Positions 1 to 22,765 of a stretch of 32,000 nt of DNA are shown one piece after another. The stretch is from Candidatus Saccharimonadota bacterium (GTDB taxonomy: Bacteria; Patescibacteriota; Saccharimonadia; Saccharimonadales; UBA4665): NCBI GenBank assembly GCA_003516025.1, contig CP023991.1, positions 330,001-362,000 of the forward strand. Direction: 5' to 3'. The number at the start of each line of letters is the position of its first letter. Positions within the stretch are counted from its first letter, which is position 1. Both the position numbers and the translations under genes were made by a program. Below the pieces are notes generated by a model. The model saw only the letters and a program-made list of their open reading frames with translations, made no database searches and was not told the DNA's origin.

Positions 1-498
1 GAAACGACCGACTACCAGTTCCCAGCGTCATTAGTTGGCCGGGCAGATTTAGCCCGGTTGCTGCGTGAGATCGAGACTGTAGATGGAGACCTGGAATCGC
101 AGAAGGTACGCGCGACCGGTAACGGCAGCAAGCCGGCTTACCATATGCCACTGCTCAGCCAGGCTCTGAGCGATTTCCTGAACATGAATAAGCTTGATAT
201 AACAAAAGAGCAGGAGCGCATGGTTATAAAGGAGCGCGTCCGGGTTCTCAAGGATAAAGCACCGACAGTTCATATGACCTTCGCGGTTGAGGCTGACCCG
301 GAAAGCCTGCAAACGTTAGTAGCGTGGCTGCGCGCTAATGCTCATCCGCATACACTGCTAAGTGTCGGCCTGCAACCAAACCTGGTGGGTGGAGTGTATC
401 TTCGTACGCCGAACCACGTACATGACTACAGTATGCGCGCCTTGTTCGCTAACAGCCGCGACGTTTTGGCCAAAGAAATCGAAGGAATGACCGGGTGA
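1..498 (+). CDS. atpH: F-type ATP synthase subunit delta (OSCP), 5' end lies upstream of window
   Basis: Frame 1 is open from nt 1 into the listed ORF 58..498. C-terminal LVGGVYLRTPNHVHDYSMRALF is delta/OSCP-like. Immediately precedes atpA with a GTGA start/stop overlap (495-498). Confidence 0.7.
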   Translation, partial: ETTDYQFPASLVGRADLARLLREIETVDGDLESQKVRATGNGSKPAYHMPLLSQALSDFLNMNKLDITKEQERMVIKERVRVLKDKAPTVHMTFAVEADPESLQTLVAWLRANAHPHTLLSVGLQPNLVGGVYLRTPNHVHDYSMRALFANSRDVLAKEIEGMTG

Positions 499-2033: not shown

Positions 2034-2893
2034 AGCGCCCACTAGAGATTGCCGCCGAAGAGTTGTCCATGAAGACTATTGTGTCGCTTACCAGCGCCTT
2101 TGAGAGTCTATCCAGTATGAAAATTACCCAGACAAAGACCCGGGTACTTATCAGTAACGAGTTTTTTAAAGAAGTCTGGACTATCTATAAGCAGATTCGC
2201 ATGGATGTGATGTTTAATTTTGGCCGCTCAGTGGACGAGGTGCCGATCGATAAAGAGCTAATGCTGCTTATTACTGCTCCGGGTGGGCTAACCGGTGATA
2301 TCGACCAGCGCCTGATCCGAAAATTCCGCGAACATTACGATCCGGAAAAGAACGATATTATCGTTATTGGTCACCACGGCGCGCTGCAGCTCGAACAATT
2401 AAAGATTAAGTACAATTTGTACTTCGACATCCCCAAAAAAGACTATATTAACGTTGATCCGCTCATGAAAGAAATCAAGAAATATAAGGCGAGCCGGGTA
2501 TTTTACCAGGACTATGTTTCGCTCAGCGAGCAGGTTATTAAAGAGCTCGACCTTGGTGAAGTGGTAAATACCATGGGTAAAATTGCAGATATTGACGAGC
2601 TGGATGGTGATGTCATCACTGAAAAAACATATATATTCGAACCCAATGCTTATTCGGTCGTTATGCACTTGGAATCATCAATTTTGCGTCTTATGCTGGC
2701 CCAGTTTATCTATGACAGCCGCTTGGCGCAGCTGGCCAGTCGCTTTAAGGCTATGACCGCTGCCAAAGAACGCTCGCTGGAAACCCAGCAGGACCTGCAC
2801 GTCGCCTTTTCGCGCGCTAAACGTGCTCTGGTGGATGTCCGGCTTAAGGAAAGCCTAGCCGGGCTTAAGAAGATTCGGGCGGGGAGGGACTAG
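2030..2893 (+). CDS. atpG: F-type ATP synthase subunit gamma
   Basis: 287-aa ORF between alpha and beta (conserved operon position). ATGA overlap with the atpA stop. Helical N- and C-termini (LSSMKITQTKTRVL..., ...AKRALVDVRLKESLAGLKKIRAG) fit a gamma coiled coil. Sequence is divergent, so the call rests mostly on synteny and size. Confidence 0.85.
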   Translation: MKRPLEIAAEELSMKTIVSLTSAFESLSSMKITQTKTRVLISNEFFKEVWTIYKQIRMDVMFNFGRSVDEVPIDKELMLLITAPGGLTGDIDQRLIRKFREHYDPEKNDIIVIGHHGALQLEQLKIKYNLYFDIPKKDYINVDPLMKEIKKYKASRVFYQDYVSLSEQVIKELDLGEVVNTMGKIADIDELDGDVITEKTYIFEPNAYSVVMHLESSILRLMLAQFIYDSRLAQLASRFKAMTAAKERSLETQQDLHVAFSRAKRALVDVRLKESLAGLKKIRAGRD

Positions 2894-4221
<1,328 letters not shown>

Positions 4222-4222
<1 letters not shown>

Positions 4223-4551
4223 TGGTAATGAGGCAAGACGCCAGTACCGGCGAAATGGTAGAAGCGCCCGATGACGGCAGCGAGCAGAAAGCGGCTGATC
4301 CCAAAAAACCAATTATGTCGGTTAAAGTGTACGCCCCGTTCCAAGTGTATTTCGAAGGCGATGCCTACAGCGTGACGGCCGCAAACGAGACTGGGCCGTT
4401 CGATATTTTACCGCGCCACCATAACTTTATTTGTATGCTGGTTCCGTGTAACCTAGTCATTAAGACGCCGTACGAAGAGAAAGTTGTCAAGATTTCGCGT
4501 GCCCTGATGCACGTCAAAGCCGAGCGTGTCGTTGTGTTCGTCGACGTTTAG
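4222..4551 (+). CDS. atpC: F-type ATP synthase subunit epsilon (beta-sandwich domain only)
   Basis: Follows atpD with a TAATG overlap. Core MSVKVYAPFQVYFEGDAYSVTAANETGPFDILPRHHNFICMLVPCNLVIK matches the epsilon N-terminal domain pattern. An alternative internal start at ATG 4315 would remove a 31-aa acidic N-extension. Confidence 0.8.
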
Positions 4552-5570
4552 CCAGCGACGAAGTAGGAGAAGCCGAACACCTGGTTGGCCGGAGCAGGGT
4601 TGGCAGTGCAGACGCTAAAGCCCGTGTTAGTGCGCGTAACGTAGTACTGGGTCTGGCCAGCGGCGAGACCAACTGGGCTGATAATGACGTTAGGCGGGGA
4701 AGCGAAGGCTTGCGCGAAGTTTACCGAGATGAAGCAACCGGCAGTCGGGTTGTTGCCGCTGTTAATATTAACAGTACCAACAGTATCGGAACCGTTTACG
4801 GATGCGGTTCCACCGTTGCCAAGCACACCTGTGTTGATGGATGCCCGCTGCGCCGGAGCGCCGGTGAAAGCAATATGGTTTGGTACTTGCAATACGGCGT
4901 TACCGCTCATAATGAGCCGGGTAACGGTAATCTGCGAAGCGCCCATGGGCCCGCTAAAATTACTGGCACCAGATACGTTAACGGTGCTCAGGGTCGTAGT
5001 GCCTTGCATGATGGCATTCTGGGCTACTTGCAGGCTATTTATTTGCGTGTCAGCCAGGTTGGTCTTGCCAGCGACAGTAAGGGTGGCTGCCTGCAGGTCA
5101 CCACCCAGGCGGATGCGGCCGGCAACATCAAGATCTTTTTGTACCAGGAGCTGGCCGGTAAATACGGCGTTTCCCTGCACGGTCAGTGTCTGGGCGGCAT
5201 TACCGACGGTGGCGTCTGAGTTGGCTAGTTGCTTGAGGGCATCAGTCGTCAGCTGTTGAGTGGCGACTTCAGGAGTATCCGGCGCTTTCTTGCTGTTTAA
5301 GAAGCTGACCGCGCTGGTGGCGGCGACGACTACCATAATGAGAATAAAACCGAGTAGATAGACGTCGACTTTGTGCCAGAAAGCTTTGAGCGGATTAACT
5401 TTTTTTGCGGAGCCTTCGGTGGCGGCAGCTTCAAGTGATCCGGTGGCGTCAACCCCCTCCGCGGTCAGCTCTTCGTTGGTCTTTTCCAGAGCATCAGCGG
5501 GCGCGGTTTGAGTTACTCCGATATTCTCAGGAGTTGCGGACGTGTCTTCGGTTGGTTTTTTGTCTTCCAT
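4548..5570 (-). CDS. hypothetical membrane-anchored surface protein with beta-helix-like imperfect repeats
   Basis: 340 aa. Acidic, disordered ~70-aa N-terminus, one TM helix (VYLLGFILIMVVVAATSAVSFL), then a Gly/Thr/Asn/Val-rich region with repeating short-strand patterns (LTVQGNAVFTGQLLVQKDLDVAGRIRLGGDLQAATLTVAGKTNL...). Overlaps the atpC stop convergently by 4 nt. Confidence 0.75.
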   Translation of the reverse strand: MEDKKPTEDTSATPENIGVTQTAPADALEKTNEELTAEGVDATGSLEAAATEGSAKKVNPLKAFWHKVDVYLLGFILIMVVVAATSAVSFLNSKKAPDTPEVATQQLTTDALKQLANSDATVGNAAQTLTVQGNAVFTGQLLVQKDLDVAGRIRLGGDLQAATLTVAGKTNLADTQINSLQVAQNAIMQGTTTLSTVNVSGASNFSGPMGASQITVTRLIMSGNAVLQVPNHIAFTGAPAQRASINTGVLGNGGTASVNGSDTVGTVNINSGNNPTAGCFISVNFAQAFASPPNVIISPVGLAAGQTQYYVTRTNTGFSVCTANPAPANQVFGFSYFVAG

Positions 5571-5693: not shown

Positions 5694-6443
5694 ATGCAAA
5701 AACAAATGATGAGACGGTTTTTACATAGTGCGGCGCTCTCGGTACTTATATGTGTTGGCGCTGTCGGAATGGCGGCCGCGGATACCGCGAGCTCGTCGAA
5801 TTATATGGTGTCTGAGACGCAATTCGGTTCCGGCTCCGCATTGGAACAGTGTAGTGGCAGTTACTGTGCCCGCTCGGCAACCGGCGATTTAGTGAACGGC
5901 CAGGCCAAAAGCGATAATTACGGTGCCCGTTTCGGGTCGGTGACTACGGCAGACCCCTACCTGGAAGTTTATACTAGCGGTGGTTTATCTGATTTGGGGA
6001 CGCTTGACATCGACCGGACCGCCACCGCCACCGCCCAGATAAGTGTCCGCAACTATATGGGCGGCTACGTTATGCAAATTACCGGCCGGCCGCCGTCGCA
6101 GGGCAGCCACGAATTAAAGGCCATGGATAGTGATCCACAGTGTCCCTGTACATCGCAGATGGGGGCCGAGCAATTCGGCATTAATTTTATTGCCAACACT
6201 GCACCATCGGTCGGCGCTAACCCAACACAGGTGCCATCAAATACTTTCAGTTTTGGCCAGGCGGCGACGGATTATGACACGCCGAATCTATTTAAATATG
6301 TTGAAGGTGACATTGTGGCTCAGAGTAATATCAGTAGTGGACAGACCGATTACACGCTTTCAATGATATTCAATGTCTCCAACGTGACACCGGGTGGCCA
6401 GTACACCGGCTCTTACTCGGCAGTGGTGGTTCCGACGTATTAG
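5694..6443 (+). CDS. secreted protein A, smallest member of the locus paralog family (CscB/WxL-like by architecture; hypothetical)
   Basis: 249 aa. Signal peptide MQKQMMRRFLHSAALSVLICVGAVGMAAA/DT. Shares EQFGINF and the C-terminal TPGGQYTGSYSAVVVPTY-stop with B, C and E. Confidence 0.85.
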   Translation: MQKQMMRRFLHSAALSVLICVGAVGMAAADTASSSNYMVSETQFGSGSALEQCSGSYCARSATGDLVNGQAKSDNYGARFGSVTTADPYLEVYTSGGLSDLGTLDIDRTATATAQISVRNYMGGYVMQITGRPPSQGSHELKAMDSDPQCPCTSQMGAEQFGINFIANTAPSVGANPTQVPSNTFSFGQAATDYDTPNLFKYVEGDIVAQSNISSGQTDYTLSMIFNVSNVTPGGQYTGSYSAVVVPTY

Positions 6444-6462
6444 TTCATTAACTGTTAATGAA
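6444..6462 (+). terminator. weak AT-rich palindrome directly after gene A
   Basis: TTCATTAAC-t-GTTAATGAA begins right after the TAG stop. No U-tract follows, so terminator function is doubtful. Confidence 0.25.
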
Positions 6463-6483
6463 CTACTGCTGTGGATAAGTATC

Positions 6484-6512
6484 TTGTTGACACATAACGC
6501 TTATGCTACAAT
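6484..6512 (+). promoter_or_regulatory. putative extended -10 promoter of gene B
   Basis: TTGTTG (6484-6489; alternatively TTGACA at 6487-6492), then TGcTACAAT (6504-6512). GCTTATG lies in the spacer. Confidence 0.55.
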
Positions 6513-6580
6513 CCGCATTGTACCCACAAAAATATAAACAATAAGTCTCAAACCAATATAGAAAGGAGAATCTTTTCTCT

Positions 6581-8248
6581 ATGTATGTAAATAATATTAA
6601 GGAAGCTGTAACGCGCAGTGGGGCATTCGCGATGGCTGTGAGTATGCTGAGCATTCTGGGTATCAGTGCTTTCCCCTCACTGGTATTCGCTAACGCCCTC
6701 AACCCGCTGACAGAGCGTACATTGCTCATGACGAGCTCTGCTCCTGGCTACAATAATACGGACGGTTCCGGCAATGCGACATATGCACCTCCGGGCAGTG
6801 GTCCGAATGGCCAGAAAGCCGGACATAAGTTCAGTTTTAAAGTGAGTACCGACAGTAGCGGCAGTGGTGCTGCGATTGACGGTTTTTCATTCCAGTACTG
6901 TACTACTGCAGCTGGTAACTGTACCTCTCCTGGAAACGACACTGTTGTTGCACCTGGTGATGATCAAACTCCTGGCACTGCCGATGACCGTGTAGATAAT
7001 GCTGCAAATAAAGAGAGTGACCTCAACGTCAGCTATGCTAACCCCCAGGAAGTAACGGCTATTCCGACATCCAACCCAGATGGGTTGGCACTTGTTGATG
7101 CTGATAACAGCGACGGAAATTTCGCGGTACTGTGGGACAGCAATAATGACGGCGTTGACGAACTAAATGCTGGCTGGGAAATGGACGTACAAAACTACGA
7201 AACTCCTAGTGCGGTTACGGTAAAAAACAACTTCATCCGTCTCCGTAAGGCTACTACCGGTTCTGGCAACAGTGCTGCCCTGAAGCCTGCTCCGGGTGTC
7301 AAGATTACCGTAGTCTTCTATGCTACTGATGATAACTTCATTACGAATCCCGGCTCCGGTAACTTTTTCGTCCGGTTGAATACCTACAAGACAAATGTTT
7401 ACACCTCAATGCTACCGAACTCGAACACGAATATCCTCGACGGTGGTGTAACGGTTGCAAATGTCATGACTGATTCAATCCATATCACCACTAAGGTTCT
7501 GGAAACGATGAGCTTCTCAGTCGGTACTGAAAATCCAGATTACCTTCCAGCTGGCGGCGGACAACATGGTCCTTGTGATCCAATTGAGGACAATGATCAA
7601 ATCCAGCTGGGTAACGCCAATGCAGAATCTTCACTGGAAGTAAACACTGCGTATGACGCTAAATCATACTGGCGCCTGTCATCCAACTCCTCCGCTGGCG
7701 CATCAGTGTATTACTCAGGCAGTACGCTCAGCAACACCGTCGGTGATAAGATTGACCCAGCTGGTTTCTTCGTAGCTGATGGTTCCGGAAAAACTGCCTT
7801 CAACGGCACTAACGTGCTCGACTTCGCCCATGCCGGCGGACCAGGTGCGCTTAGTCATCCAGGAATGGAACAATTCGGATTAGCTTTCGACCCAACTGAA
7901 GATCGCGATAACGATGGCGTCGCTGACCTACCTGATGGTAACGTCGGTGAACAAGGCCCAGGCAATGACCTTAAAGGACTGATTATGAGTGACGCCTACA
8001 ACGGTGGCGCAGGTCGTATCAATAAGGAAGTGGTAGATCCCGATGATTCATCTCAAGATCTCCCTATTACGGCTAAGTTCGCTTTCGATCCTTCAAGCCA
8101 GTCAACACCAGCTCTGATTGCTAGCAACACTACTGATGTTGTTGACTGCTCGACCGGTAAGATGCGCTACATTGGTAACATCGCTGCTGCAACACCAGCC
8201 GGTGTATACACCACTAAGATTAACTACCTCGCTGCTCCTCAGTACTAG
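6581..8248 (+). CDS. secreted protein B, large paralog with two DxDxDG-type acidic loops (CscC/WxL-like by architecture; hypothetical)
   Basis: 555 aa. Signal peptide ending SLVFA/NA. AAAGGAGA SD upstream. Family motifs FQYCTTAAGNCTSP, VLETMSFSVG, EQFGLAF and the C-terminal TPAGVYTTKINYLAAPQY-stop. Confidence 0.9.
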   Translation: MYVNNIKEAVTRSGAFAMAVSMLSILGISAFPSLVFANALNPLTERTLLMTSSAPGYNNTDGSGNATYAPPGSGPNGQKAGHKFSFKVSTDSSGSGAAIDGFSFQYCTTAAGNCTSPGNDTVVAPGDDQTPGTADDRVDNAANKESDLNVSYANPQEVTAIPTSNPDGLALVDADNSDGNFAVLWDSNNDGVDELNAGWEMDVQNYETPSAVTVKNNFIRLRKATTGSGNSAALKPAPGVKITVVFYATDDNFITNPGSGNFFVRLNTYKTNVYTSMLPNSNTNILDGGVTVANVMTDSIHITTKVLETMSFSVGTENPDYLPAGGGQHGPCDPIEDNDQIQLGNANAESSLEVNTAYDAKSYWRLSSNSSAGASVYYSGSTLSNTVGDKIDPAGFFVADGSGKTAFNGTNVLDFAHAGGPGALSHPGMEQFGLAFDPTEDRDNDGVADLPDGNVGEQGPGNDLKGLIMSDAYNGGAGRINKEVVDPDDSSQDLPITAKFAFDPSSQSTPALIASNTTDVVDCSTGKMRYIGNIAAATPAGVYTTKINYLAAPQY

Positions 8249-8289
8249 GATATAATTCCTTACTTTTACGCCACATAGTTTGGCAGGAG

Positions 8290-8318
8290 AAAAAGACCCG
8301 GTTTACCGGGTCTTTTTA
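8290..8318 (+). terminator. intrinsic terminator after gene B
   Basis: AAAA-AGACCCGG-TTTA-CCGGGTCT-TTTTAT: an 8-bp GC-rich stem, a tetraloop and a U-tract. A-tract/U-tract symmetry suggests it may work in both directions. Confidence 0.85.
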
Positions 8319-8323
8319 TGCCT

Positions 8324-8353
8324 TAGACAATTCGATGGTTATTCTTGTACAAT
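8324..8353 (+). promoter_or_regulatory. putative promoter of gene C (leaderless)
   Basis: TAGACA (8324-8329), 18 nt, TACAAT (8348-8353). ATG 8360 begins 7 nt after the -10 box. Confidence 0.55.
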
Positions 8354-8359
8354 ACATCT

Positions 8360-9442
8360 ATGCATAAGCTCAATCATGTGAGGGTGAGGGTATTGCCGCA
8401 CCATGTTTTTTGGGCTGAGATGTTGTTGTCTCTGTTCTTCTCGGTAATCGTTTTTCTACCGAGCGTCGACGCGGCCGATGTCTCACGCTTAAGGCTGCGC
8501 AGTTTGTTCATGTATAACCCCAACCCGGGCGTTGTCACGGACTACAAGGTTTCTTTCACATATTCCACGACTACCACTGTCGGATCGGTTGACATGCTAT
8601 TTTGTACAAGCCCTATCCCGGATGATCCGTGTTACGTCCCTGTGGGGCTGGACTTATCTAATGTAAGTATGGGTGTACAGACGGGTGAAACAGGATACGA
8701 TGTCCAGGTCAAATCACCGAACCACATTGTCCTTAGCCGAGCGACGCCAGCTGTGGTAGACGCGGTAGCATCATCTTATACGCTGCATAATGTTAAAAAC
8801 CCGACGGACGATGTCCGGCCTTTCTCAATTCGTTTGAGTACCCATAGCGATAGCGCGGCGAACAATCCCGTTATTGATCTCGGTTCGGTTGTCGGTGGAC
8901 TCAATAATGGGATTTTTATAGAGACACAGGTGCCGCCGACACTCATGTTCTGTCTTGGCCAGGAGGTTTCCGTCGACTGTAGCGATGTAGACGGTGTAAA
9001 TTACCATGATATGGGAAATCTGGCGGCGGACACTACATTAACGGCTCAGTCACAGATGTCGGTAGGTACCAACGCGACTTCGGGGTTTGCTATTACTGTT
9101 AATGGCACCAGTATGAAAGCGGGCAATAATGTGATAGACGCCGTAGCTGCAATACCAACTACCAGTATTACGGGCAAGAACCAGTTCGGAATCAACTTAG
9201 TAAAAAATACCCAACCGGAAGTTGGCGGCGATCCTGACGGTGATGACTCGGTAGCTGCCGCAGCCGCAAATTACGACCAGCCGAACCGTTACTTTTTCCG
9301 AGATGGGGATGTAGTCGCAAGCTCTCCTCATGTCAGTTTATTGAAGCGATTTACAGTCAGCTATATCGTTAATACCGATCCAAACTTACGTGCCGGTGTC
9401 TATAGCACAACGATTACCTACATTTGCAGTGGCCGATTTTGA
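8360..9442 (+). CDS. secreted protein C, paralog of B and E (hypothetical)
   Basis: ORF track begins at TTG 8345. I prefer ATG 8360 because a TACAAT -10 box (8348-8353) lies 6 nt upstream, which fits a leaderless mRNA. Signal peptide ...FFSVIVFLPSVDA/AD. Motifs DYKVSFTYS, LFCTSPIPDDPCYVP, NQFGINL and the C-terminal RAGVYSTTITYICSGRF-stop. Confidence 0.85.
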   Translation: MHKLNHVRVRVLPHHVFWAEMLLSLFFSVIVFLPSVDAADVSRLRLRSLFMYNPNPGVVTDYKVSFTYSTTTTVGSVDMLFCTSPIPDDPCYVPVGLDLSNVSMGVQTGETGYDVQVKSPNHIVLSRATPAVVDAVASSYTLHNVKNPTDDVRPFSIRLSTHSDSAANNPVIDLGSVVGGLNNGIFIETQVPPTLMFCLGQEVSVDCSDVDGVNYHDMGNLAADTTLTAQSQMSVGTNATSGFAITVNGTSMKAGNNVIDAVAAIPTTSITGKNQFGINLVKNTQPEVGGDPDGDDSVAAAAANYDQPNRYFFRDGDVVASSPHVSLLKRFTVSYIVNTDPNLRAGVYSTTITYICSGRF

Positions 9443-9451
9443 TGCTACAAT
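9423..9451 (+). promoter_or_regulatory. putative extended -10 promoter of gene D, overlapping the 3' end of gene C
   Basis: TTTGCA (9423-9428), 17 nt including TGc, TACAAT (9446-9451). Confidence 0.5.
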
Positions 9452-9488
9452 TATGCTTATACTTAAAAGTAACAGTGAGAGAGATAAA

Positions 9489-10535
9489 ATGAAACGTTTA
9501 TTTACGTACGTCAGCAGTGTTACTCTGCTGCTTGCACTTATTGGCAATGTAGTTCCTGCTTCGGCTCAATCGACAGGCTCATCAGGCCTAAGTATTACGC
9601 CCCGCAAAAACCTCACACTAAAACCAGGCGAGTCGACCACTGATAAACTTACTATCGGTAACTTAAGCAAAAACGCGGATTTGGAAGTTAGCCTAAAAGC
9701 TATCGATTTTACTTTCATGAATGAAACGGGCACGCCAAAGTTATTGCTCGGCGAGAATACACAGCAGACAGCGTGGTCAGTTAGGCCGTTTCTGGAATTC
9801 ACTCAATCTGTTGTCGTGCCGGCTGGACAGTCTCGAACCGTTAATTACACGCTAACTATTCCAAAAAACCAGGGTGCCGGTTCTTACTACAGTGCTATCC
9901 AGTATGGTACGGGCGGTACTAATGGAGGAAATGTTAATTTGAGCGCTTCTGGAGTTACACTTGTATTTGTTTCTGTCCCCGGTGTCGTAAAAGAAGACAT
10001 GACACTTAAAAGGTTTGGTGCCTACCAACTAAACAAGGACAATATTACCGGTAGTTACGTTAAGATAGCCACAAATAAGCCAGAACAAGTCGCATTTACA
10101 TTACAAAATAATGGAAATGTTGCAGAAGCTCCCGTTGGCAGCGTAACTGTTAAATATATGTTCGGCAAGAAACAATGGAATATTGACAACGTCAACGAAA
10201 CGTCATCGCTTGCTCTTATCGGCCAAAGCCGTATTTATTTAAATTGTCTAGAATCTCAAGAACAACAGGTGAATGTTGCTGGTAGTGAAGCCAAAAACAA
10301 GACCTGTAAGTCACCAAAATTATGGCCCGGCCGTTACACGGCAACCCTCGATGCCTTCTACGGGCAAAACGGTAACAACACTCATCAGGTATCAGCTACC
10401 GCCAGTTTCTGGTACTTGCCATGGTGGTTCCTTATTACCATAATCGCTCTACTCACCATCATTTCAACCGCAGTACTGCTCATAGTCTATAAGGCAAAAC
10501 GAGCCGCCAGGGGCAAAAGCGCCCGGCGCCGCTAA
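9489..10535 (+). CDS. cell-surface protein D: signal peptide + two beta-rich halves + C-terminal TM anchor (CscA / DUF916-DUF3324-like by architecture)
   Basis: The track ORF starts at 9390, inside gene C. ATG 9489 gives a proper signal peptide (MKRLFTYVSSVTLLLALIGNVVPASA/QS). C-terminal TM helix WWFLITIIALLTIISTAVLLIVY followed by KAKRAARGKSARRR. Clear paralog of F. Confidence 0.85.
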   Translation: MKRLFTYVSSVTLLLALIGNVVPASAQSTGSSGLSITPRKNLTLKPGESTTDKLTIGNLSKNADLEVSLKAIDFTFMNETGTPKLLLGENTQQTAWSVRPFLEFTQSVVVPAGQSRTVNYTLTIPKNQGAGSYYSAIQYGTGGTNGGNVNLSASGVTLVFVSVPGVVKEDMTLKRFGAYQLNKDNITGSYVKIATNKPEQVAFTLQNNGNVAEAPVGSVTVKYMFGKKQWNIDNVNETSSLALIGQSRIYLNCLESQEQQVNVAGSEAKNKTCKSPKLWPGRYTATLDAFYGQNGNNTHQVSATASFWYLPWWFLITIIALLTIISTAVLLIVYKAKRAARGKSARRR

Positions 10536-10542
10536 CAAAAGT

Positions 10543-10569
10543 AAAAGGGGACTGTAAAAGTCCCCTTTT
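10543..10569 (+). terminator. intrinsic terminator after gene D
   Basis: AAAA-GGGGACT-GTAAA-AGTCCCC-TTTT. Confidence 0.85.
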
Positions 10570-10588
10570 CGCATAAACAGAATAAGGT

Positions 10589-10604
10589 TAGAATAAACAT
10601 AAGC
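10589..10604 (+). promoter_or_regulatory. putative -10 box of gene G plus AAACATAAGC box
   Basis: TAGAAT (10589-10594) followed directly by AAACATAAGC (10595-10604), then TATG with the start at 10606. No convincing -35 box. Confidence 0.45.
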
Positions 10605-10605
10605 T

Positions 10606-11523
10606 ATGAGGTTTGAAAAGCGCATCATTTTGTTACTGCAAGCTAGCATCCTGGCTTGTTCGTGCTTAGTGGCTTTCGCCGTACCGCAGGCTAGCGCTGC
10701 CATAAACAAAATACCCGAACCTGATCCCAAACCTAATTCATTCGGCCTTGAGGCCACTAAAACGCAGCCGGCGCCAACTCAGGGCGCGACTATATCGGTG
10801 CCCGGCAGCGGCGCGTCGTTTAGTACCTCGCCTGTAACGGTTAGCGGTATCTGTCCGAAGGGCTTGCTGGTACAGGTATACAACAACGGCGTGCTGGCGG
10901 GTTCCATAGACTGCGCCAACGGCAGCTTTAGTATCCAAGTAACACTCTATAATGGCACAAACGAATTAACGGCGACCGTTTTCGATGATCTTGACCAGGC
11001 GGGGCCGGAGTCAAACAAGGTGAGCGTTAGCTATAATAACGCGTCCATCACGGCATTTGGCCAACTTATTACGCTTACCAGCGCCTTTGGCCGTCGGGCT
11101 GCCGATCCGGGAACGCAGCTTGTCTGGCCACTGGTACTTTCGGGTGGCACTGGGCCGTACGCCTTTAGTATTGACTGGGGAGATGGCACTTCGCCTGAGC
11201 TTAAAAGCCAGGCACTGTCCGGGGAGGTTCGAATATCGCATACCTATAAGCAAGCTGGTGTGTACCATGTGATCGTTAAAGTAACCGATGCCAACGGTGT
11301 CAGCGCTTTCTTACAGTTAACGGCCGTAGCGAATGGTAAGGTAACTGCCGCCGAGACGACGGCAGCTAACACCAAAACCGTGGTCGTGACGAAAATGCTG
11401 TGGATTCCGGTGATCGTGGCAGCTATCATGCTGGTACCTGCGTTCTGGCTGGGCCGGCGTAGCGAACTGAAGAGCCTGCATAAGCGGCTGCAACATGATT
11501 TAGATACCTATAAAGATTTGTAA
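10606..11523 (+). CDS. membrane-anchored Ig-like/PKD-domain surface protein G
   Basis: 305 aa. Signal peptide ...VAFAVPQASA/AI. PKD-type block YAFSIDWGDGTSPE...ISHTYKQAGVYHVIVKVTDANG. C-terminal TM helix MLWIPVIVAAIMLVPAFWLG and a short charged tail. Confidence 0.85.
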   Translation: MRFEKRIILLLQASILACSCLVAFAVPQASAAINKIPEPDPKPNSFGLEATKTQPAPTQGATISVPGSGASFSTSPVTVSGICPKGLLVQVYNNGVLAGSIDCANGSFSIQVTLYNGTNELTATVFDDLDQAGPESNKVSVSYNNASITAFGQLITLTSAFGRRAADPGTQLVWPLVLSGGTGPYAFSIDWGDGTSPELKSQALSGEVRISHTYKQAGVYHVIVKVTDANGVSAFLQLTAVANGKVTAAETTAANTKTVVVTKMLWIPVIVAAIMLVPAFWLGRRSELKSLHKRLQHDLDTYKDL

Positions 11524-11530
11524 AAAAGTA

Positions 11531-11560
11531 TTGCGCATCATAACATAAGCATGATAAAAT
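11531..11560 (+). promoter_or_regulatory. putative extended -10 promoter of gene E
   Basis: TTGCGC (11531-11536), 18 nt, TGaTAAAAT (11552-11560). TAACATAAGC (11541-11550) lies in the spacer. An AT-rich leader of about 55 nt carrying an SD follows. Confidence 0.45.
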
Positions 11561-11621
11561 CTACTCGTTAACCATAAAAACCAAAAATATTAAAATAAAA
11601 TTAAAAAGAGGGATTAAACAT

Positions 11622-12785
11622 ATGAAATCCATAGGGATCTTCAACCGCCGCTCCAGCTCTCTCGTAGCCGCAACGGCCATGCTCCTGTCGGTCGTGGCGC
11701 CGAGTCTGGTATTTTCCAGCGCGTCAGCCGACCAGCTGACCGGCCGGAAGATAGAATTGAGCAGTTCCGCTGCCGGCGCGACCGACGTAGACTATAAAGT
11801 AACATTCACCGCTACTGAATCAGCGGCAGGATATGTCATTGATTTTTGTAGCAACAGCCCGTTGCTTGGTATGAGTTGTGTGCCACCCACCGGCATGTCC
11901 ACGGCTAGCCCTACTGCTTCAGGCGCTACAGTTGTTGACGGTCCTGCTGCACCTACAACAAACACCAGCTTAGAAATTACACAAGCTATTACGGCCGGTC
12001 CTGTGACTACAGAAGTAAGCGGCATAACCAATCCAACGACAGCCGGTCCATTGTACGCTCGTATCTATACCTATGAGGACATGGCTAATGCGGCCGTGTC
12101 ATCCAATCCAGGAACTACTGAAGACAATGGCGCAGTCGCACTGTCAATAACTAACAAAATTGGCGTATCCGCTGCCGTCCTGGAAACTATGACTTTCTGC
12201 GTATCTAAGACAGATACATCTTCGTCAGGCCATGAGAATTGCCTCGATCTAGGCGATGCCGAAGATTTGCCGAATATTCAGCTCGGTGAAGAGAGTGGCG
12301 GCGTCAAGGCGCTGCAAACTGGTATCGTAAGTAAGGGTACTATATGGACTCAAATTTCTACTAACGCCGTAGCAGGCGCCGTAGTAAGCATGAAGATTAA
12401 CAATCAATGCGGTGGCTTGAAATTGGCGGGCGTTAGTTCTCCTTGTAGCATTGCTCCTGCAATCAGCGGAAGTATTGTAGACAACGGCCCGGCTAAATTC
12501 GGTGTCAAAACCGGCACTGCGGTGGCTTCAGCGGACATCACTACCGCCCAGGGTACATACCAGCCTGCGACAGGCAGCGGTTATGGTGACAGTTCGTACT
12601 TCATGGGATTTGTTGACGGTGACGACGGTGTCACTAGCACGTATGGCGACCCTGTTCTTGACACCAACGGTGCTCCAATCAACAACATGAACATGCCGCT
12701 GGAATTTGCTGCTACGATTACTAACCAGACTCCAGCTGGCCTGTACTCGGCAGACCTCAATATGATTGCATCGGGTACATTCTAG
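11622..12785 (+). CDS. secreted protein E, paralog of B and C (hypothetical)
   Basis: 387 aa. AGAGGGA SD about 10 nt upstream. Signal peptide ...PSLVFSSASA/DQ. Motifs VDYKVTFTAT, DFCSNSPLLGMSCVPP, VLETMTFCVS, AKFGVKT and the C-terminal TPAGLYSADLNMIASGTF-stop. Confidence 0.9.
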   Translation: MKSIGIFNRRSSSLVAATAMLLSVVAPSLVFSSASADQLTGRKIELSSSAAGATDVDYKVTFTATESAAGYVIDFCSNSPLLGMSCVPPTGMSTASPTASGATVVDGPAAPTTNTSLEITQAITAGPVTTEVSGITNPTTAGPLYARIYTYEDMANAAVSSNPGTTEDNGAVALSITNKIGVSAAVLETMTFCVSKTDTSSSGHENCLDLGDAEDLPNIQLGEESGGVKALQTGIVSKGTIWTQISTNAVAGAVVSMKINNQCGGLKLAGVSSPCSIAPAISGSIVDNGPAKFGVKTGTAVASADITTAQGTYQPATGSGYGDSSYFMGFVDGDDGVTSTYGDPVLDTNGAPINNMNMPLEFAATITNQTPAGLYSADLNMIASGTF

Positions 12786-12816
12786 AAAAATCCGCCAGCC
12801 CACGGAACTCATTTAC

Positions 12817-12826
12817 AAACATAAGC
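12817..12826 (+). repeat. third exact copy of the AAACATAAGC box, upstream of gene F
   Basis: ATTTAC-AAACATAAGC-GTG. The same 10-mer occurs at 5682-5691 and 10595-10604, each time right after a -10-like hexamer and right before a start codon. Confidence 0.5.
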
Positions 12827-12874
12827 GTGTCTGTTAAGGTAAGTACAAGTAACCACTATGGGAGTTAAAAACAA

Positions 12875-13924
12875 GTGATAAAACAAACACTACGGGTTGC
12901 ATTGTTCGCGACAGTGCTTTGTGGGCTTGTAGCTACGTCCAGTGTGTCTCCTGTCTTTGCCGCGACGACCGCTCCTGCCAAAGCCAAGACGACGCCGCCT
13001 AATACCAGCACTAACACGCTTAAAATATCCCCTATCCGCACCGAAGTAACGATCATTGCAGGACAGACGAGTACCGTTAAGACAATTGTTACGAATATTA
13101 CCGGCAGTCCGATTGTGGTTGAACCGATTGAAAACGACTTCGTGGCCGGTGACGAAAATGGTACGCCAGCCCTCATCCTTGACCAGAACAGCTACGCCCC
13201 GACCCACAGCCTGAAGCGTTTTATGGTACCGCTTAAGAATGTGACGATTAATCCGGGCGAAGCCAAAGAAATCCCTGTAACTATTACCGTTCCAAAGAAT
13301 GCGCAGGCTGGTGGTTACTTCGGCGCCGTGCGCTTTGCTCCCGCCAACACCAGCGGTAGCCAGCAAGTCAACCTCAGCCCGAGCGTTGCCTCCCTGATTC
13401 TTCTGACCGTTCCCGGTCCGACCACCGAACAACTGAACCTGACGAACTTCGACATCCAACAAGATGGCAGCTCCGGCTCCAATTTCCGCACGCCGGAAAA
13501 TCTTCAGGCTTTCATCCGCTTTGAAAATAAGGGTAATGTACAACAGGCACCCGTCGGCCAGATCAACGTTAAAAAGGGCAGTAAAGTCGTGTACACCGCC
13601 GACTTTAACCAGACCGATCCGAAAGCCAACGTCCTGCCCGACAGCGCCCGCCGCTGGACCGTTCCGCTGAAAAAGCTTGGGAAATTTGGTAAATATACCG
13701 TCAGCGCCACCTTTACCTACGGCAGCAAAAACGAAAGCATTGATGTCACTAAGACCGTTTGGATTGTGCCAACGACCTACATCTACGCTGGCATCATTGC
13801 AATTGTTGTCCTGGTAGCCATCGTTGGTGGCTTCATCCTCTTCCTTAAGGGCTACAAGCGCCGCCTGTTGGGTGGCTCATCCCGCTCCGGCCGCGGTGGC
13901 CGTAATAATTACCGCCGCCGCTAG
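12875..13924 (+). CDS. cell-surface protein F: paralog of D (CscA / DUF916-DUF3324-like by architecture)
   Basis: 349 aa. GTG start with GGAG SD 10 nt upstream. Signal peptide ...SSVSPVFA/AT. C-terminal TM helix YAGIIAIVVLVAIVGGFILFL followed by an Arg/Gly-rich tail (RRLLGGSSRSGRGGRNNYRRR). Multiple conserved blocks shared with D. Confidence 0.9.
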   Translation: MIKQTLRVALFATVLCGLVATSSVSPVFAATTAPAKAKTTPPNTSTNTLKISPIRTEVTIIAGQTSTVKTIVTNITGSPIVVEPIENDFVAGDENGTPALILDQNSYAPTHSLKRFMVPLKNVTINPGEAKEIPVTITVPKNAQAGGYFGAVRFAPANTSGSQQVNLSPSVASLILLTVPGPTTEQLNLTNFDIQQDGSSGSNFRTPENLQAFIRFENKGNVQQAPVGQINVKKGSKVVYTADFNQTDPKANVLPDSARRWTVPLKKLGKFGKYTVSATFTYGSKNESIDVTKTVWIVPTTYIYAGIIAIVVLVAIVGGFILFLKGYKRRLLGGSSRSGRGGRNNYRRR

Positions 13925-13940
13925 CCTCCAGCTGTTCCGC

Positions 13941-13972
13941 AAACCCTCTCACATTGCAGGAGAGGGTTTTTT
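13941..13972 (+). terminator. intrinsic terminator after gene F
   Basis: AAA-CCCTCTC-ACATTGCAG-GAGAGGG-TTTTTT. Confidence 0.85.
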
Positions 13973-13982
13973 GCTTAAAAAA

Positions 13983-19587: not shown

Positions 19588-19626
19588 CGATACATAATTT
19601 ATCCGTGCCGTAGCCGGCTGGCAGTG

Positions 19627-19635
19627 TGCTAAAAT
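19627..19635 (+). promoter_or_regulatory. extended -10 element upstream of the ftsA-like gene
   Basis: TGcTAAAAT lies 8 nt upstream of ATG 19644. The 12-bp palindrome AAGCATATGCTT (19638-19649) spans that ATG. Confidence 0.45.
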
Positions 19636-19643
19636 TAAAGCAT

Positions 19644-21005
19644 ATGCTTGATTTGCAAAAGTTAAAGGGTGTGGGCGCGTCTGTTGCTAAAAAGGCTGGC
19701 CAGGCCGCGAAACAAGCGACTGACTCCGCTAAAAATGTTAAAGATAAGCGAGCCACCGGCGCGGCTGCGCGCAACGACCAGTACATCGTGGCGCTTGATA
19801 TCGGTACGGAATACGTCAAGGCGCTCATCGGCCGGGTAAACAGCGACAGCGACGAGATCGACATTATAGGTGTCGGCCGCCAGAAACAGCGCTTGAGCGA
19901 TATGCAGGCTGGGGCTATTTCAGATATCCCGAGCGTTGTTCAAAACTGTGACCAGGCACTGGCTAAAGCCGAAGAGCAGGCAGGCGTCAGTGCCCGCATG
20001 GCCGTCGTCGGTATTGCCGGCGAACTGGTCAAGGGAACGACTACCCGTATTAAGGTCACACGTCCCCAGCCGACCAAGGCACTCGATACAGCTGAAATGG
20101 AAAAAATCATCCGTTTAGTACAGGAACGAGCCGGCGTGAAAGCCCGCCAGGAATTACTGGTTGAACTGGGCGGCAAAGACGTCGAAGTCCGCCTGGTGAA
20201 CAGTGCCCTGGTGAGTATTGATATCGACGGTTATCCCGTAACCAACCCGATTGGCTTCCAGGGTAAAGACGTTGTAGTACAAATGTATACCGCCTTCGCG
20301 CCGCTGATTCATATTGGCGCTCTGGAGCGTACTGCCCAGGAGCTGGATCTTGACCTGCTGGCTGTAGCTGCCGAACCGTTCGCCGTCGCCCGATCGGTTA
20401 TTGGTAATACCAGTAACTCCGCCTTTAGCGCCGTACTGATGGATGTCGGGGGTGGTACGACTGATATCGCCGTTATCAATGACGGCGGCGTACAAGGTAC
20501 CAAAATGTTTGGCATCGGCGGCCGAGCCTACACCCGTGGTATCGAGCGTGACCTGGGCGTTGACTATGACCTCGCCGAAAAACTGAAACTGGGGCTCAGC
20601 AATCAAACCGTGCCGGCCCGCCAGGCTGTTGCCGTAACAAAAAACCTGCAAAAGACACTTGATGTCTGGACCAGTGGTGTTGAGTTGGCGCTGGGAGAAT
20701 TTCCCGGCCTCGACCACTTGCCGCACCGCATTCTGCTCTGCGGCGGCGGTTCCAGTTTAGACATGCTAATGGACAACCTACAGCGCACCAACTGGTATAC
20801 CGACCTGCCGTTCGCTCGAAAACCTGTCGTGCAGCACATTCAGCCGGGCCAGGTTGTTGGCATTCACGACAAGACCGGCCAAGTCGCTGATCACACTTTT
20901 ATTACCGCTATGGGACTGCTGCGCGTCGGACTTGATACCTTAAGCTATTCCGGCACATCGAGTGGTACCATTAAGGAAAAACTGGATAAGATATTACAAA
21001 CCTAA
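19644..21005 (+). CDS. ftsA: actin-fold cell-division protein FtsA-like
   Basis: YIVALDIGTEYVKALIG, VLMDVGGGTTDIAVINDGG and RILLCGGGSSL phosphate/adenosine motifs. C-terminal IKEKLDKILQT could be an amphipathic membrane-targeting helix. The track start is GTG 19626. ATG 19644 is favoured by the extended -10 TGCTAAAAT at 19627-19635. Confidence 0.8.
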   Translation: MLDLQKLKGVGASVAKKAGQAAKQATDSAKNVKDKRATGAAARNDQYIVALDIGTEYVKALIGRVNSDSDEIDIIGVGRQKQRLSDMQAGAISDIPSVVQNCDQALAKAEEQAGVSARMAVVGIAGELVKGTTTRIKVTRPQPTKALDTAEMEKIIRLVQERAGVKARQELLVELGGKDVEVRLVNSALVSIDIDGYPVTNPIGFQGKDVVVQMYTAFAPLIHIGALERTAQELDLDLLAVAAEPFAVARSVIGNTSNSAFSAVLMDVGGGTTDIAVINDGGVQGTKMFGIGGRAYTRGIERDLGVDYDLAEKLKLGLSNQTVPARQAVAVTKNLQKTLDVWTSGVELALGEFPGLDHLPHRILLCGGGSSLDMLMDNLQRTNWYTDLPFARKPVVQHIQPGQVVGIHDKTGQVADHTFITAMGLLRVGLDTLSYSGTSSGTIKEKLDKILQT

Positions 21006-21022: not shown

Positions 21023-22765
21023 ATGGCAACGAACCAAAAAGACACCGTTTATATCGACATTGATGATGAAATAACCAGCATCATTGATAAAGTACGCGCT
21101 GCCGACGCCCGCATTGTAGCCCTGGTGCTGCCAAAACGGGCGGCTGTGCTGCAAAGCATCGTCAACATGAAGCTACTCAAGAAAACGGCAGAACAGGCCA
21201 AAAAACATGTTGTGCTGATTACTTCCGAGTCAGGCCTGTTGCCGCTGGCAGGTGCCGTCGGGCTGCATGTGGCTTCCAGTTTGCAGTCGAAGCCGGCTAT
21301 TCCTGTGGCGGGTGGCGTAGTTGCCGCCGAAGTGATTGACGGCAGTGGTGATTTTGACGCGGCTTCCGTAGCTGATAGGCCGGTAGGCCAATTGGCCGGC
21401 CCGGCCGCCTCCGCCTATGACGCTAATGATCTCGATACGATTACCCTTGATGACGAACCGGCTGCGGCAGATGCCGCAAAAGCTGGTACCGTTACCGGAC
21501 TTGCCGCTGGCGCCGCTCCTGTTTCTGCTGCTGGAGCGTCTACTAAAGCCGATAAGGCCGCTAAAGGTAAAAAAGACAGCAAACTTAAAATCCCCGATTT
21601 TAACAAGTTCCGTCTATGGTTGATTGCCGGCGGGGCCCTGCTGATAGCCCTGATTGTATTCGGTTATTTTGCCCTGGTCGTTATGCCAAAAGCAACCGTT
21701 ACTATCGCTACCGACAGCAGTGATATCCCGACGAATGCTGATATTACGCTCGATCCGTCGGCTGACGAACTTGATCTGGAAGACCGTGTGCTGCCTGCTA
21801 AAATTGAGACTAAGCAGCAGGCCAGCACCCAGCAAGCTACCGCCACCGGCCAAAAGAATAACGGTACCAAAGCAACTGGTGAAGTTCGGATGACGGCTGG
21901 TAGCTGTAGTGCTGATATACCCGAAGACGTCCCGGCTGGTACTGGAGTTAGCAGTAATGGGATGACTTTTATTACCGGCAATAACACCACCTTTGTTCCG
22001 ACATCTTCCAATGGTAAATGTGTCTTTACGGCTAGTCGTGATACGAATATAACGGCTCAAAAAGCTGGCGCCACATATAATATTGCTGCAACAACTTTTA
22101 GTGTCGCCGGGCGGAGCGAAGTTAAGGCGAACTCCGAGGATCCTACAAGCGGGGGGACCGACAACATCGTTAAAGTAGTCGCCCAAAGCGACATTGATAA
22201 TGCTAAGCAGAAACTGACGGCCAGCACCAGCTCATCGGTAAAGAGCGAATTGCAGTCCAAGCTTACGGACGACGGGTATAAAGCTGTAGCCAGCAGCCTT
22301 AAGGCGGGAGACGCGGCCGTAACATCGAGCGTAAACGTTGGCGACCAGGCGGACGTGGTAACAGTAACTTCTACGACGACGTATACCATGTACGGTATCA
22401 AAACCAGCGACCTCAAGCGACTGATTCTCGACAATGTTAAAGACAAGATCGACAGTAGTAAGCAGCAAATCCTCAATGACGGTACCGATAAAGCCGCCTT
22501 TACCATCAATTCACCGGCCAGCAGTGGTGAACTCCAGGTACGCTTGGCGGCAACCTCGTTGGCTGGTCCTGACCTCAAGACTGACACTCTAAAATCTCAA
22601 ATAGCCGGTAAGAAAACCAATGATGTCCGCACCGCAGTCACCTCGACGCCTGGCGTAACTGGTGTTACGGTTAAGTACAGCCCATTCTGGGTCTCGAAAG
22701 TACCGAAAAATCAGGATAAAATTACTATCGTAATCGAAAAGGCGTCAGCCAGTAAGAATAATTAG
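21023..22765 (+). CDS. hypothetical bitopic membrane protein (cytoplasmic alpha/beta-like N-domain, Ala/Pro-rich linker, TM helix, Ser/Thr-rich ectodomain)
   Basis: 580 aa. AAGGAAG SD. TM helix LWLIAGGALLIALIVFGYFALVV at about residue 198. Starts 17 nt after the ftsA-like stop, so probably co-transcribed. No family recognised. Confidence 0.8.
   Translation: MATNQKDTVYIDIDDEITSIIDKVRAADARIVALVLPKRAAVLQSIVNMKLLKKTAEQAKKHVVLITSESGLLPLAGAVGLHVASSLQSKPAIPVAGGVVAAEVIDGSGDFDAASVADRPVGQLAGPAASAYDANDLDTITLDDEPAAADAAKAGTVTGLAAGAAPVSAAGASTKADKAAKGKKDSKLKIPDFNKFRLWLIAGGALLIALIVFGYFALVVMPKATVTIATDSSDIPTNADITLDPSADELDLEDRVLPAKIETKQQASTQQATATGQKNNGTKATGEVRMTAGSCSADIPEDVPAGTGVSSNGMTFITGNNTTFVPTSSNGKCVFTASRDTNITAQKAGATYNIAATTFSVAGRSEVKANSEDPTSGGTDNIVKVVAQSDIDNAKQKLTASTSSSVKSELQSKLTDDGYKAVASSLKAGDAAVTSSVNVGDQADVVTVTSTTTYTMYGIKTSDLKRLILDNVKDKIDSSKQQILNDGTDKAAFTINSPASSGELQVRLAATSLAGPDLKTDTLKSQIAGKKTNDVRTAVTSTPGVTGVTVKYSPFWVSKVPKNQDKITIVIEKASASKNN

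Follow-up and report, generated by a model that had tools for sequence, protein, structure and literature searches.

PamC and PamD of a Saccharimonadota pilus operon: paralogous membrane-tethered members of the WxLIP superfamily and probable pilin chaperones

We analyzed two paralogous proteins, here called D and F, encoded in a 32,000-nucleotide stretch of the genome of a Candidatus Saccharimonadota bacterium (assembly GCA_003516025.1, contig CP023991.1, positions 330,001 to 362,000 of the forward strand; the whole stretch is called the window below). Both proteins are members of the WxLIP superfamily, which is defined by the domains DUF916 and DUF3324 followed by a membrane helix and includes CscA of Firmicutes. 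They are best explained as tethered, strand-complementing pilin chaperones, a reading to which we assign a probability of roughly 70%. The original prediction, made from the sequence of the window, had assigned the two proteins a CscA layout and had also likened them to a tethered pilus chaperone with two immunoglobulin (Ig) domains; the two readings prove to be one and the same. NCBIfam models and a 2026 bioRxiv preprint (10.64898/2026.03.03.709456) identify the surrounding gene cluster as the Pam pilus operon of bacteria of the candidate phyla radiation (CPR). Gene D encodes PamD and gene F encodes PamC, both of which were already described in that preprint as putative chaperones. The addition made here is a modest new connection, the link of PamC and PamD to WxLIP; the preprint compares the two proteins with FimC and PapD only, and WxL, DUF916, and Csc are not mentioned in it.

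Seven consecutive plus-strand genes occupy positions 5694–13924 of the window in the order PamT-PamA-PamE-D-PamR-PamB-F (Table 1). NF058581, the NCBIfam model for the C-terminal domain of the Pam pilus system pilin subunit, matched four proteins of the window (249, 555, 365, and 387 residues). Each open reading frame (ORF) at 5694–13924 encodes a pilin, PamR, or D/F, and no usher-like gene was found among these ORFs. The PamE gene lies directly upstream of D, which starts with ATG preceded by GAGAGAGA, and the PamB gene lies directly upstream of F. We identified D as PamD and F as PamC because the gene order, sizes, and Cys counts fit the preprint, in which two filaments of Candidatus Mycosynbacter amalyticus were solved by cryo-electron microscopy (cryo-EM), their pilins were named PamA and PamB, and donor-strand exchange was reported (10.64898/2026.03.03.709456). 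The operon of M. amalyticus, which encodes PamC (WP_260763277.1) and PamD (WP_260763284.1), agrees with that of the window in content, order, sizes, and the C-terminal membrane helix, and probably in the insertion of PamD relative to PamC; the 4 and 6 Cys residues of the pilins of the window fit the two and three disulfide pairs reported in the preprint. PamR of the window contains a PKD domain and a C-terminal hydrophobic segment; it has been proposed as the pilus terminator and anchor and is predicted to insert its N-terminal strand into PamE (10.64898/2026.03.03.709456). Proteins identical to D and to F are present in public data.

D and F are paralogs. BLASTP aligned 306 residues of the two at 27% identity (E 4e-30), and the comparison of the D family with the F family, represented by 72 D-type and 64 F-type orthologs, gave a probability of 99.95% and an E value of 2.6e-38 over 308 columns in hhalign; both values are far above chance. 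The paralogy had been proposed from six pairs of shared sequence blocks, and all twelve quoted blocks were found in their places, each D block aligning with its F counterpart in BLASTP. The predicted layout of a membrane-tethered protein with two domains was likewise borne out: the hydropathy profiles revealed a signal-like N terminus, one C-terminal hydrophobic stretch, and a tail rich in Lys and Arg, and the model of F contained two beta domains. The membrane helix and the basic tail were kept in all D-type and F-type orthologs. The main difference is that D carries some 20 extra residues in its second domain, an insertion bounded by two Cys residues that are invariant in the 72 orthologs; F has a gap opposite this insertion both in the hhalign comparison of the two families and in BLASTP. 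From its sequence, the insertion is probably a disulfide-closed hairpin missing from F, and the preprint describes an extra beta-hairpin of PamD "at the hinge" relative to PamC (10.64898/2026.03.03.709456).

We compared D, F, and their relatives with Pfam families and with a set of Firmicutes WxLIPs. PF06030 (WxLIP_PGBD, formerly DUF916) was the best family for both D (24.2 bits, residues 41–138) and F (23.4 bits), just below its cut-off of 27.3 bits. The same model was the top family for 63 of the 64 F-type and 68 of the 72 D-type orthologs (best E value, 3.8e-9) and matched 34 of 52 diverse PamC-like representatives. The Firmicutes set consisted of 12 plasmid-borne proteins annotated "DUF916 and DUF3324", each in a typical WxL cluster. 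In hhalign, the F family matched this set with a probability of 98.0%, the D family with 98.8%, and the 52 diverse representatives with 98.9%; a single E. mundtii WxLIP gave 95.7%. The alignments with the set extended over 222–296 columns and both domains, and those of the D family and the diverse representatives reached the membrane helix. PF11797 (WxLIP_HBD, DUF3324) did not match D, F, or the 188 relatives; the hhalign alignments run through the second domain. A search of PDB sequences with the F-family profile gave only chance matches to membrane helices and missed WxLIP.

In regards to their overall organization, D and F resemble WxLIP/CscA proteins in size (about 340–360 residues) and in the succession of a signal peptide, two Ig-like domains, a membrane helix, and a basic tail. 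In both systems the gene adjoins those of secreted, presumed partners, one of which is a small single-domain protein and the others are larger and carry N-terminal extensions. The basic isoelectric point (pI) of D and F is found in Lactiplantibacillus WxLIPs as well. The differences concern both sequence and context. The motif NQIDKxxxYFDLK, a conserved N-terminal motif of WxLIP (PMC10599100), is absent from D and F, which have a gap of 11–12 residues at this place in hhalign, and, unlike WxLIP/CscA, D and F score below the PF06030 cut-off and lack a PF11797 match. The partners of WxLIP are WxL-domain proteins, whereas those of D and F are polymerizing Pam pilins; the pam operon encodes no LPXTG protein, unlike the WxL/Csc clusters of Firmicutes; and the host of D and F is a CPR bacterium rather than a Firmicute.

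We modeled the structure of F with AlphaFold2, using 64 orthologs, and inferred that of D from the D-F alignment. The model had a mean predicted local distance difference test (pLDDT) score of 84.2, with beta domains at residues 49–179 and 187–297 and a helix at 300–333. Its best PDB matches in Foldseek were two structures of the Enterococcus faecium WxLIP, the unbound protein (9i1y) and its complex with a long WxL protein (9i25_C), with an E value of 2.9e-11 and 269 aligned columns, against a chain of 251 residues for 9i25_C. The next matches were CfaA (E 3.6e-9), CsuC (3.2e-7), Caf1M (5.4e-7), and FimC (6.6e-7), followed by CupB2 and DraB (1.2e-6). The scores against chaperone-usher chaperones were 0.45–0.55 (template modeling score, normalized to the target). 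Foldseek thus returned the fold that had been predicted, with WxLIP at the top, in agreement with the CscA layout, and the chaperone-usher chaperones next, in agreement with the likeness to a tethered two-Ig-domain chaperone; the preprint names PamC and PamD as chaperones independently.

D and F share with PapD, FimC, Caf1M, CfaA, and CsuC the two Ig-like domains, a place in a pilin operon, and the pairing of a basic chaperone with acidic pilins. The clients are also alike, since both kinds are Ig-like, short of one strand, and polymerize by donor-strand exchange. D and F differ from the PapD-like proteins in being anchored in the membrane rather than soluble, in being about 100 residues longer, and in having no usher and no outer membrane beside them; their donor element may be another loop. 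Sequence membership in the PapD family was considered for D and F and was ruled out by the Pfam scans and by hhalign. The probabilities of 98–99% against WxLIP, compared with 0.5–19% against chaperone-usher chaperones, together with the fold matches, indicate that D and F are members of the WxLIP superfamily that have the architecture of PapD-like chaperones and lack their sequence signature.

The operon context of D and F is conserved. We scanned species-representative genomes and obtained 80 related loci, nearly all labeled Saccharibacteria or Saccharimonadia, and counted gene order in the 60 loci with more than 7.5 kb of upstream sequence. All seven Pam families were present in the same order in 55 of these. 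Homologs of D and F thus do not lie mostly outside such clusters, which the original prediction had named as a finding that would speak against it. Three of the exceptions lacked only a recognizable PamT, and two have probably decayed or been rearranged, or are chimeras of the assembly: L075 (10049–10873) holds a truncated PamC-type copy of 274 residues by itself, and L037 (9347–10957) holds a PamB fragment of 157 residues and PamC, the rest of the operon being absent. Neither contains masked sequence. The spacing between PamA and PamE was 1.1–1.9 kb longer than in the window in L004, L005, L006, L011, L014, L032, L034, L055, L058, and others; the additional sequence could hold one more gene, and phmmer assigned nothing in it to the seven families. 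Pam operons also occur on contigs labeled as Chloroflexi, Acidobacteriota, and Dongiaceae metagenome-assembled genomes (L019, L054, and L070, respectively). Because the distribution is otherwise exclusive to Saccharimonadia, contamination during binning is a more probable cause than transfer.

We calculated partial correlations of the pairwise distance matrices in 53 genomes with complete operons to investigate which Pam families co-evolve, using 500 bootstraps. The partial correlation of PamD with PamE was 0.56, and PamE was the top partner of PamD in 500 of 500 bootstraps. For PamC, PamB was the top partner in 394 of 500 (partial correlation, 0.31), and PamT was second (0.20). PamR correlated with PamE (0.31), which fits the predicted insertion of the PamR strand into PamE, and with PamB (0.25). 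These values give some indirect support to a pairing by module, of D with PamT, PamA, and PamE and of F with PamB.

On this basis we propose the following scheme. PamC and PamD would be exported by Sec, and the single C-terminal helix would hold each of them in the cytoplasmic membrane, with the positively charged tail in the cytoplasm and the two Ig-like beta-sandwich domains displayed on the outer face. There, the chaperone would capture a newly exported Pam pilin, the C-terminal Ig-like domain of which is short of one strand. A strand of the N domain would fill the groove and keep the pilin folded, soluble, and near the membrane until the linker strand of the next subunit displaces it by donor-strand exchange. 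As this exchange releases the pilin from a tethered chaperone, the pilus could grow at the membrane without an usher. PamT and the PamA-type major pilin are likely clients, and labor is likely divided such that PamD serves mainly PamE and the PamT/PamA group and PamC mainly PamB. The chaperone activity is suggested by the solved WxLIP-WxL complex, by the AlphaFold predictions of two papers, and by analogy to chaperone-usher systems; the AlphaFold complexes of the preprint place chaperone strands into the open C-terminal domain of the pilins, and its authors used AlphaFold and Foldseek to classify PamC and PamD, which have C-terminal membrane helices, as FimC/PapD-like chaperones (10.64898/2026.03.03.709456). 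The charge complementarity between basic chaperones (pI 9.8 and 10.1) and acidic Pam pilins (pI 4.2–5.1) also argues for this scheme.

In the F model, the donor strand could come from either of two elements. The first candidate for a strand-donating hairpin, by analogy to WxLIP, is the long excursion at residues 91–122, which follows a strand ending in N87-D88-F89. Its residues 91–110 had pLDDT scores of 71–73, and conservation in the family peaks here (E94, G96, P98, A108, P109, and S112–M117); the equivalent motif in D is DF...GTPKL...WS(V/L)(R/K)PF, and the pattern common to the D and F families is DF...GTPxL...SL(K/R)xF. The excursion aligned with the N-domain region of WxLIP in hhalign. 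In WxLIP, a long unstructured hairpin of DUF916 is predicted by AlphaFold to become the strand that completes the WxL sandwich (PMC10599100). The second candidate comprises F residues 157–179, of which the loop at 157–171 was of low confidence (pLDDT about 50). In position, it resembles two elements known from PapD-like chaperones of chaperone-usher systems, the F1-G1 loop and the G1 strand. The alignments also contained conserved basic residues, R39/R55 in the first strand and the K/R of the SL(K/R) motif. In PapD-like chaperones, the cleft pair Arg8/Lys112 anchors the C-terminal carboxylate of the pilin.

Several observations weigh against the chaperone reading. The chaperone role of PamC and PamD rests on predicted structures, and the authors of the WxLIP study do not read WxLIP as a chaperone but assign it tethering at the surface and binding to the host (PMC10599100). 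The models PF00345 (PapD_N) and PF02753 (PapD_C) matched none of the 188 proteins, and hhalign against eight chaperone-usher chaperones gave 0.5% and 19%, the latter for domain 1 only. The co-evolving pairs are encoded by adjacent genes, and a shared recombination history could explain the signal without contact. On the side of the clients, Pfam WxL matched 0 of 145 Pam pilin C-terminal domains at E values up to 10. A profile of 252 Pam pilin C domains gave 7.5% in hhalign against 14 WxL domains and PamE alone gave 28%, whereas a second hhalign comparison gave 5%; in these alignments (5–28%), only the last strand is aligned. Since the Pam pilin C domains have no detectable homology to WxL, the 9i25 complex is not a guaranteed template.

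The view that the Pam pilin C-terminal domains are themselves WxL domains was rejected for lack of support from profiles, Pfam, and Foldseek. The PamT profile matched a small WxL protein with an E value of 0.76. The PamT monomer model (pLDDT 78) had weak Foldseek matches to chaperone-usher pilins, and its top 50 PDB matches included no WxL chain. Searches of PDB sequences with the PamA- and PamB-type pilins gave nothing relevant.

Three other explanations were weighed. The first, which is the main rival, we consider unlikely: D and F would be permanent tethers in stable association with a pilin C-terminal domain, serving as the base or anchor of the pilus and not cycling in assembly. Through their membrane helix they would keep the completed filament, or single surface proteins, attached to the cell. 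The WxLIP authors propose that WxLIP anchors and stabilizes WxL proteins at the surface (PMC10599100), and the membership of D and F in the same superfamily, the stable complex implied by the solved WxLIP-WxL structure, and the retention of the membrane helix and basic tail in all orthologs would suit such a role. However, PamR, the N-terminal strand of which is predicted to enter PamE, already provides the operon with a dedicated anchored protein, and a single tether would suffice, so that a pair of paralogs would be superfluous. Furthermore, the cryo-EM filaments hold PamA and PamB only, and the pili detach easily (10.64898/2026.03.03.709456). Moreover, a chaperone may also form a stable complex, so the two readings are not mutually exclusive.

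The absence of an usher-like gene from the operon and the conclusion of the preprint that there is no trans-envelope machinery would permit a further role, in which the tethered proteins act as an assembly platform that catalyzes and orders donor-strand exchange, with the paralogs dictating subunit order. The two paralogs have distinct co-evolving partners, and the filaments switch between stretches of PamA and PamB (10.64898/2026.03.03.709456), as this role would lead one to expect. We nevertheless regard it as very improbable, given that a two-Ig-domain protein offers no catalytic or pore-like feature, that chaperone-usher subunits can self-polymerize slowly without an usher, and that the affinities of the pilins could by themselves set the order. 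That D and F are independent Ig-like envelope or host-binding adhesins for carbohydrate or peptidoglycan, merely co-transcribed with the pilus genes and outside its assembly, has equally little to recommend it: the N domains match fn3_5, NPCBM_assoc, and the GH123 N-terminal domain weakly, and the Pfam names of the WxLIP domains speak of "peptidoglycan binding" and "host binding" from in-silico assignments, but the position in the pam operon is fixed in the great majority of loci, each chaperone co-evolves with the adjacent pilin, the structural matches are strand-complementing partners and not lectins, and the most conserved residues lie in flexible N-domain loops instead of a pocket-like site.

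The original prediction also held that a strong intrinsic terminator closes each module, after D and after F. Both hairpins exist in the window, and this part of the claim stands; conservation does not, because only 8% of the D-type and 21% of the F-type genes in related loci are followed by a terminator-like hairpin, which rules out terminators as conserved module ends as a general rule. The hairpin after D was reported on the minus strand by a consensus terminator scan, and the one after F was less exceptional for its context (z score −1.7, 14 of 200 shuffles as good). A hairpin as strong as these two, absent from the original prediction, lies behind the PamA gene. Among the related loci, such terminator-like sites followed 69% of PamA genes and 55% of PamB genes, compared with 0–1% of the PamT, PamE, and PamR genes; the PamB gene of the window has no such hairpin, unlike those 55%. 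This pattern suggests conserved attenuation or mRNA stabilization after the major pilin genes. In chaperone-usher operons, hairpins after the genes of major subunits raise the ratio of pilin to chaperone, and the PamA/PamB pattern resembles the one found there.

The coordinates of the features discussed above are summarized in Table 1.

Table 1. Genes, protein elements, and hairpins of the pam operon in the window
Feature	Position	Strand	Description	Evidence
PamT	5694–6443	+	Single-domain tip pilin, 249 residues	NCBIfam NF058579 equivalog, E 1.1e-87, 293 bits (cut-off 240)
PamA-type major pilin	6581–8248	+	555 residues, 4 Cys	NF058581 Pam pilin C domain, 48 bits; operon position and Cys count as in the preprint
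Hairpin after PamA gene	8290–8317	+	Strong hairpin and T run	12-bp stem in a fold of −27.1 kcal/mol, z score −3.7
PamE-type pilin	8345–9442	+	Up to 365 residues; alternative start at 8393 in public gene call	NF058581, E 1.6e-44
D, PamD-type tethered chaperone (putative)	9489–10535	+	348 residues, pI 9.8	ORF, hydropathy, blocks, PF06030, hhalign
Parts of D	D residues		Signal peptide ~1–26; N domain ~31–165; C domain ~170–300; membrane helix ~312–334; basic tail 335–348	
D-specific insertion	10245–10307	+	About 20 residues in second domain	Bounded by C253 and C273, invariant in 72 orthologs
Hairpin after D	10541–10572	+	Flanking A and T runs, intrinsic-terminator-like	−18.4 kcal/mol, z score −6.8, 0/200 shuffles as good
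PamR	10606–11523	+	RbmA-like, PKD-containing, membrane-anchored, 305 residues	NF058578 equivalog, E 8e-116, 386 bits (cut-off 300)
PamB-type major pilin	11622–12785	+	387 residues, 6 Cys	NF058581, 29.5 bits; Cys count
F, PamC-type tethered chaperone (putative)	12875–13924	+	349 residues, pI 10.1, GTG start	ORF, model, Foldseek, hhalign
Parts of F	F residues		Signal peptide ~1–29; Ala/Thr/Pro-rich linker 30–46; N domain 47–181; C domain 186–298; membrane helix ~301–324; basic tail 325–349	
F residues 91–122, candidate donor element	13145–13240	+	Long excursion between two N-domain strands, little regular structure	Model, conservation
F residues 157–179, alternative candidate	13343–13411	+	Loop, then last N-domain strand	VNLSxS...L.L.VPG, common with D 148–165
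Hairpin after F	13939–13974	+	G+C-rich, 10-bp stem then T6, operon end	−17 kcal/mol
Shared blocks of D and F	D and F residues		LSITP D34 / LKISP F49; TIPKNQ... D123 / TVPKNA... F138; NVNLSAS... D148 / QVNLSPS... F164; NNGNVAEAP... D207 / NKGNVQQAP... F218; WPGRYTA... D279 / KFGKYTV... F270; basic tails at D335 and F329	

The genes for the alpha, gamma, beta, and epsilon subunits of ATP synthase lie upstream of the pam operon (495–4551), and ATP synthase genes are reported as pam neighbors in the preprint (10.64898/2026.03.03.709456). Between them and PamT, a minus-strand ORF of 340 residues (4548–5570) had no Pfam or NCBIfam match. Downstream of the operon are mnmA and alaS. Further genes of the window encode an FtsA/PilM-like actin-fold protein of 459 residues (19626–21005), which scored below the cut-off of the FtsA model; next after it, a protein of 580 residues (21023–22765) with no family match; and a protein of 371 residues with LysM and CHAP domains (24337–25452), a likely peptidoglycan hydrolase that could matter to a parasite of Actinobacteria.

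The likeness to WxLIP raises the possibility of a common origin. In each of the four Pam pilins, a G-x-Y-[ST]-[ST]-x-[LI] strand precedes a terminal aromatic residue (PAGVYTTKINYLAAPQY is one instance), and Firmicutes WxL proteins end similarly, in A-x-x-Y-T-T-T-L-T-W-x-L-x-x-x-P; the terminal strand motif in common is G-x-Y-[ST]-[ST]-x-[LI]-x-[WY]. The layouts of the two clusters are also parallel, each with one single-domain client, larger clients that are extended at the N terminus, and one separately anchored small protein. The Pam pilus and the WxL/Csc clusters of Firmicutes might share an ancestor, an ancient chaperone system of single-membrane bacteria that was tethered to the membrane and worked without an usher, an idea that we regard as tentative and rather doubtful. 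If so, WxLIP/CscA proteins may be strand-complementing chaperones or assembly platforms and not adhesins that bind peptidoglycan or a host, and donor-strand complementation may hold WxL proteins and perhaps join them together. Of this link, only the chaperone half is established; the client half rests on the terminal motif and the cluster layout.

In a cultivated CPR parasite, Pam pili rank among the most abundant proteins, and they are thought to make the first contact with the host (10.64898/2026.03.03.709456). A bacterium without an outer membrane or an usher builds a donor-strand pilus here, and the sole candidates for the machinery that assembles it are PamC and PamD. D, F, and their orthologs fall below every curated Pfam and NCBIfam threshold, whereas NCBIfam does cover PamT, PamR, and the C domain of the pilins with models. 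The F-family profile retrieved 5,302 cluster representatives at E values of 1e-3 or less and 2,457 at 1e-10 or less, which indicates an annotation gap of about 2,450 cluster representatives for the PamC/PamD family. The placement in WxLIP gives the proposed chaperones a solved relative bound to its client (9i25), compared with the fold analogy to PapD alone in the preprint, and suggests a loop to mutate. The WxL/Csc clusters of enterococci, listeriae, and lactobacilli, which are widespread and poorly understood, may use the same principle of strand complementation.

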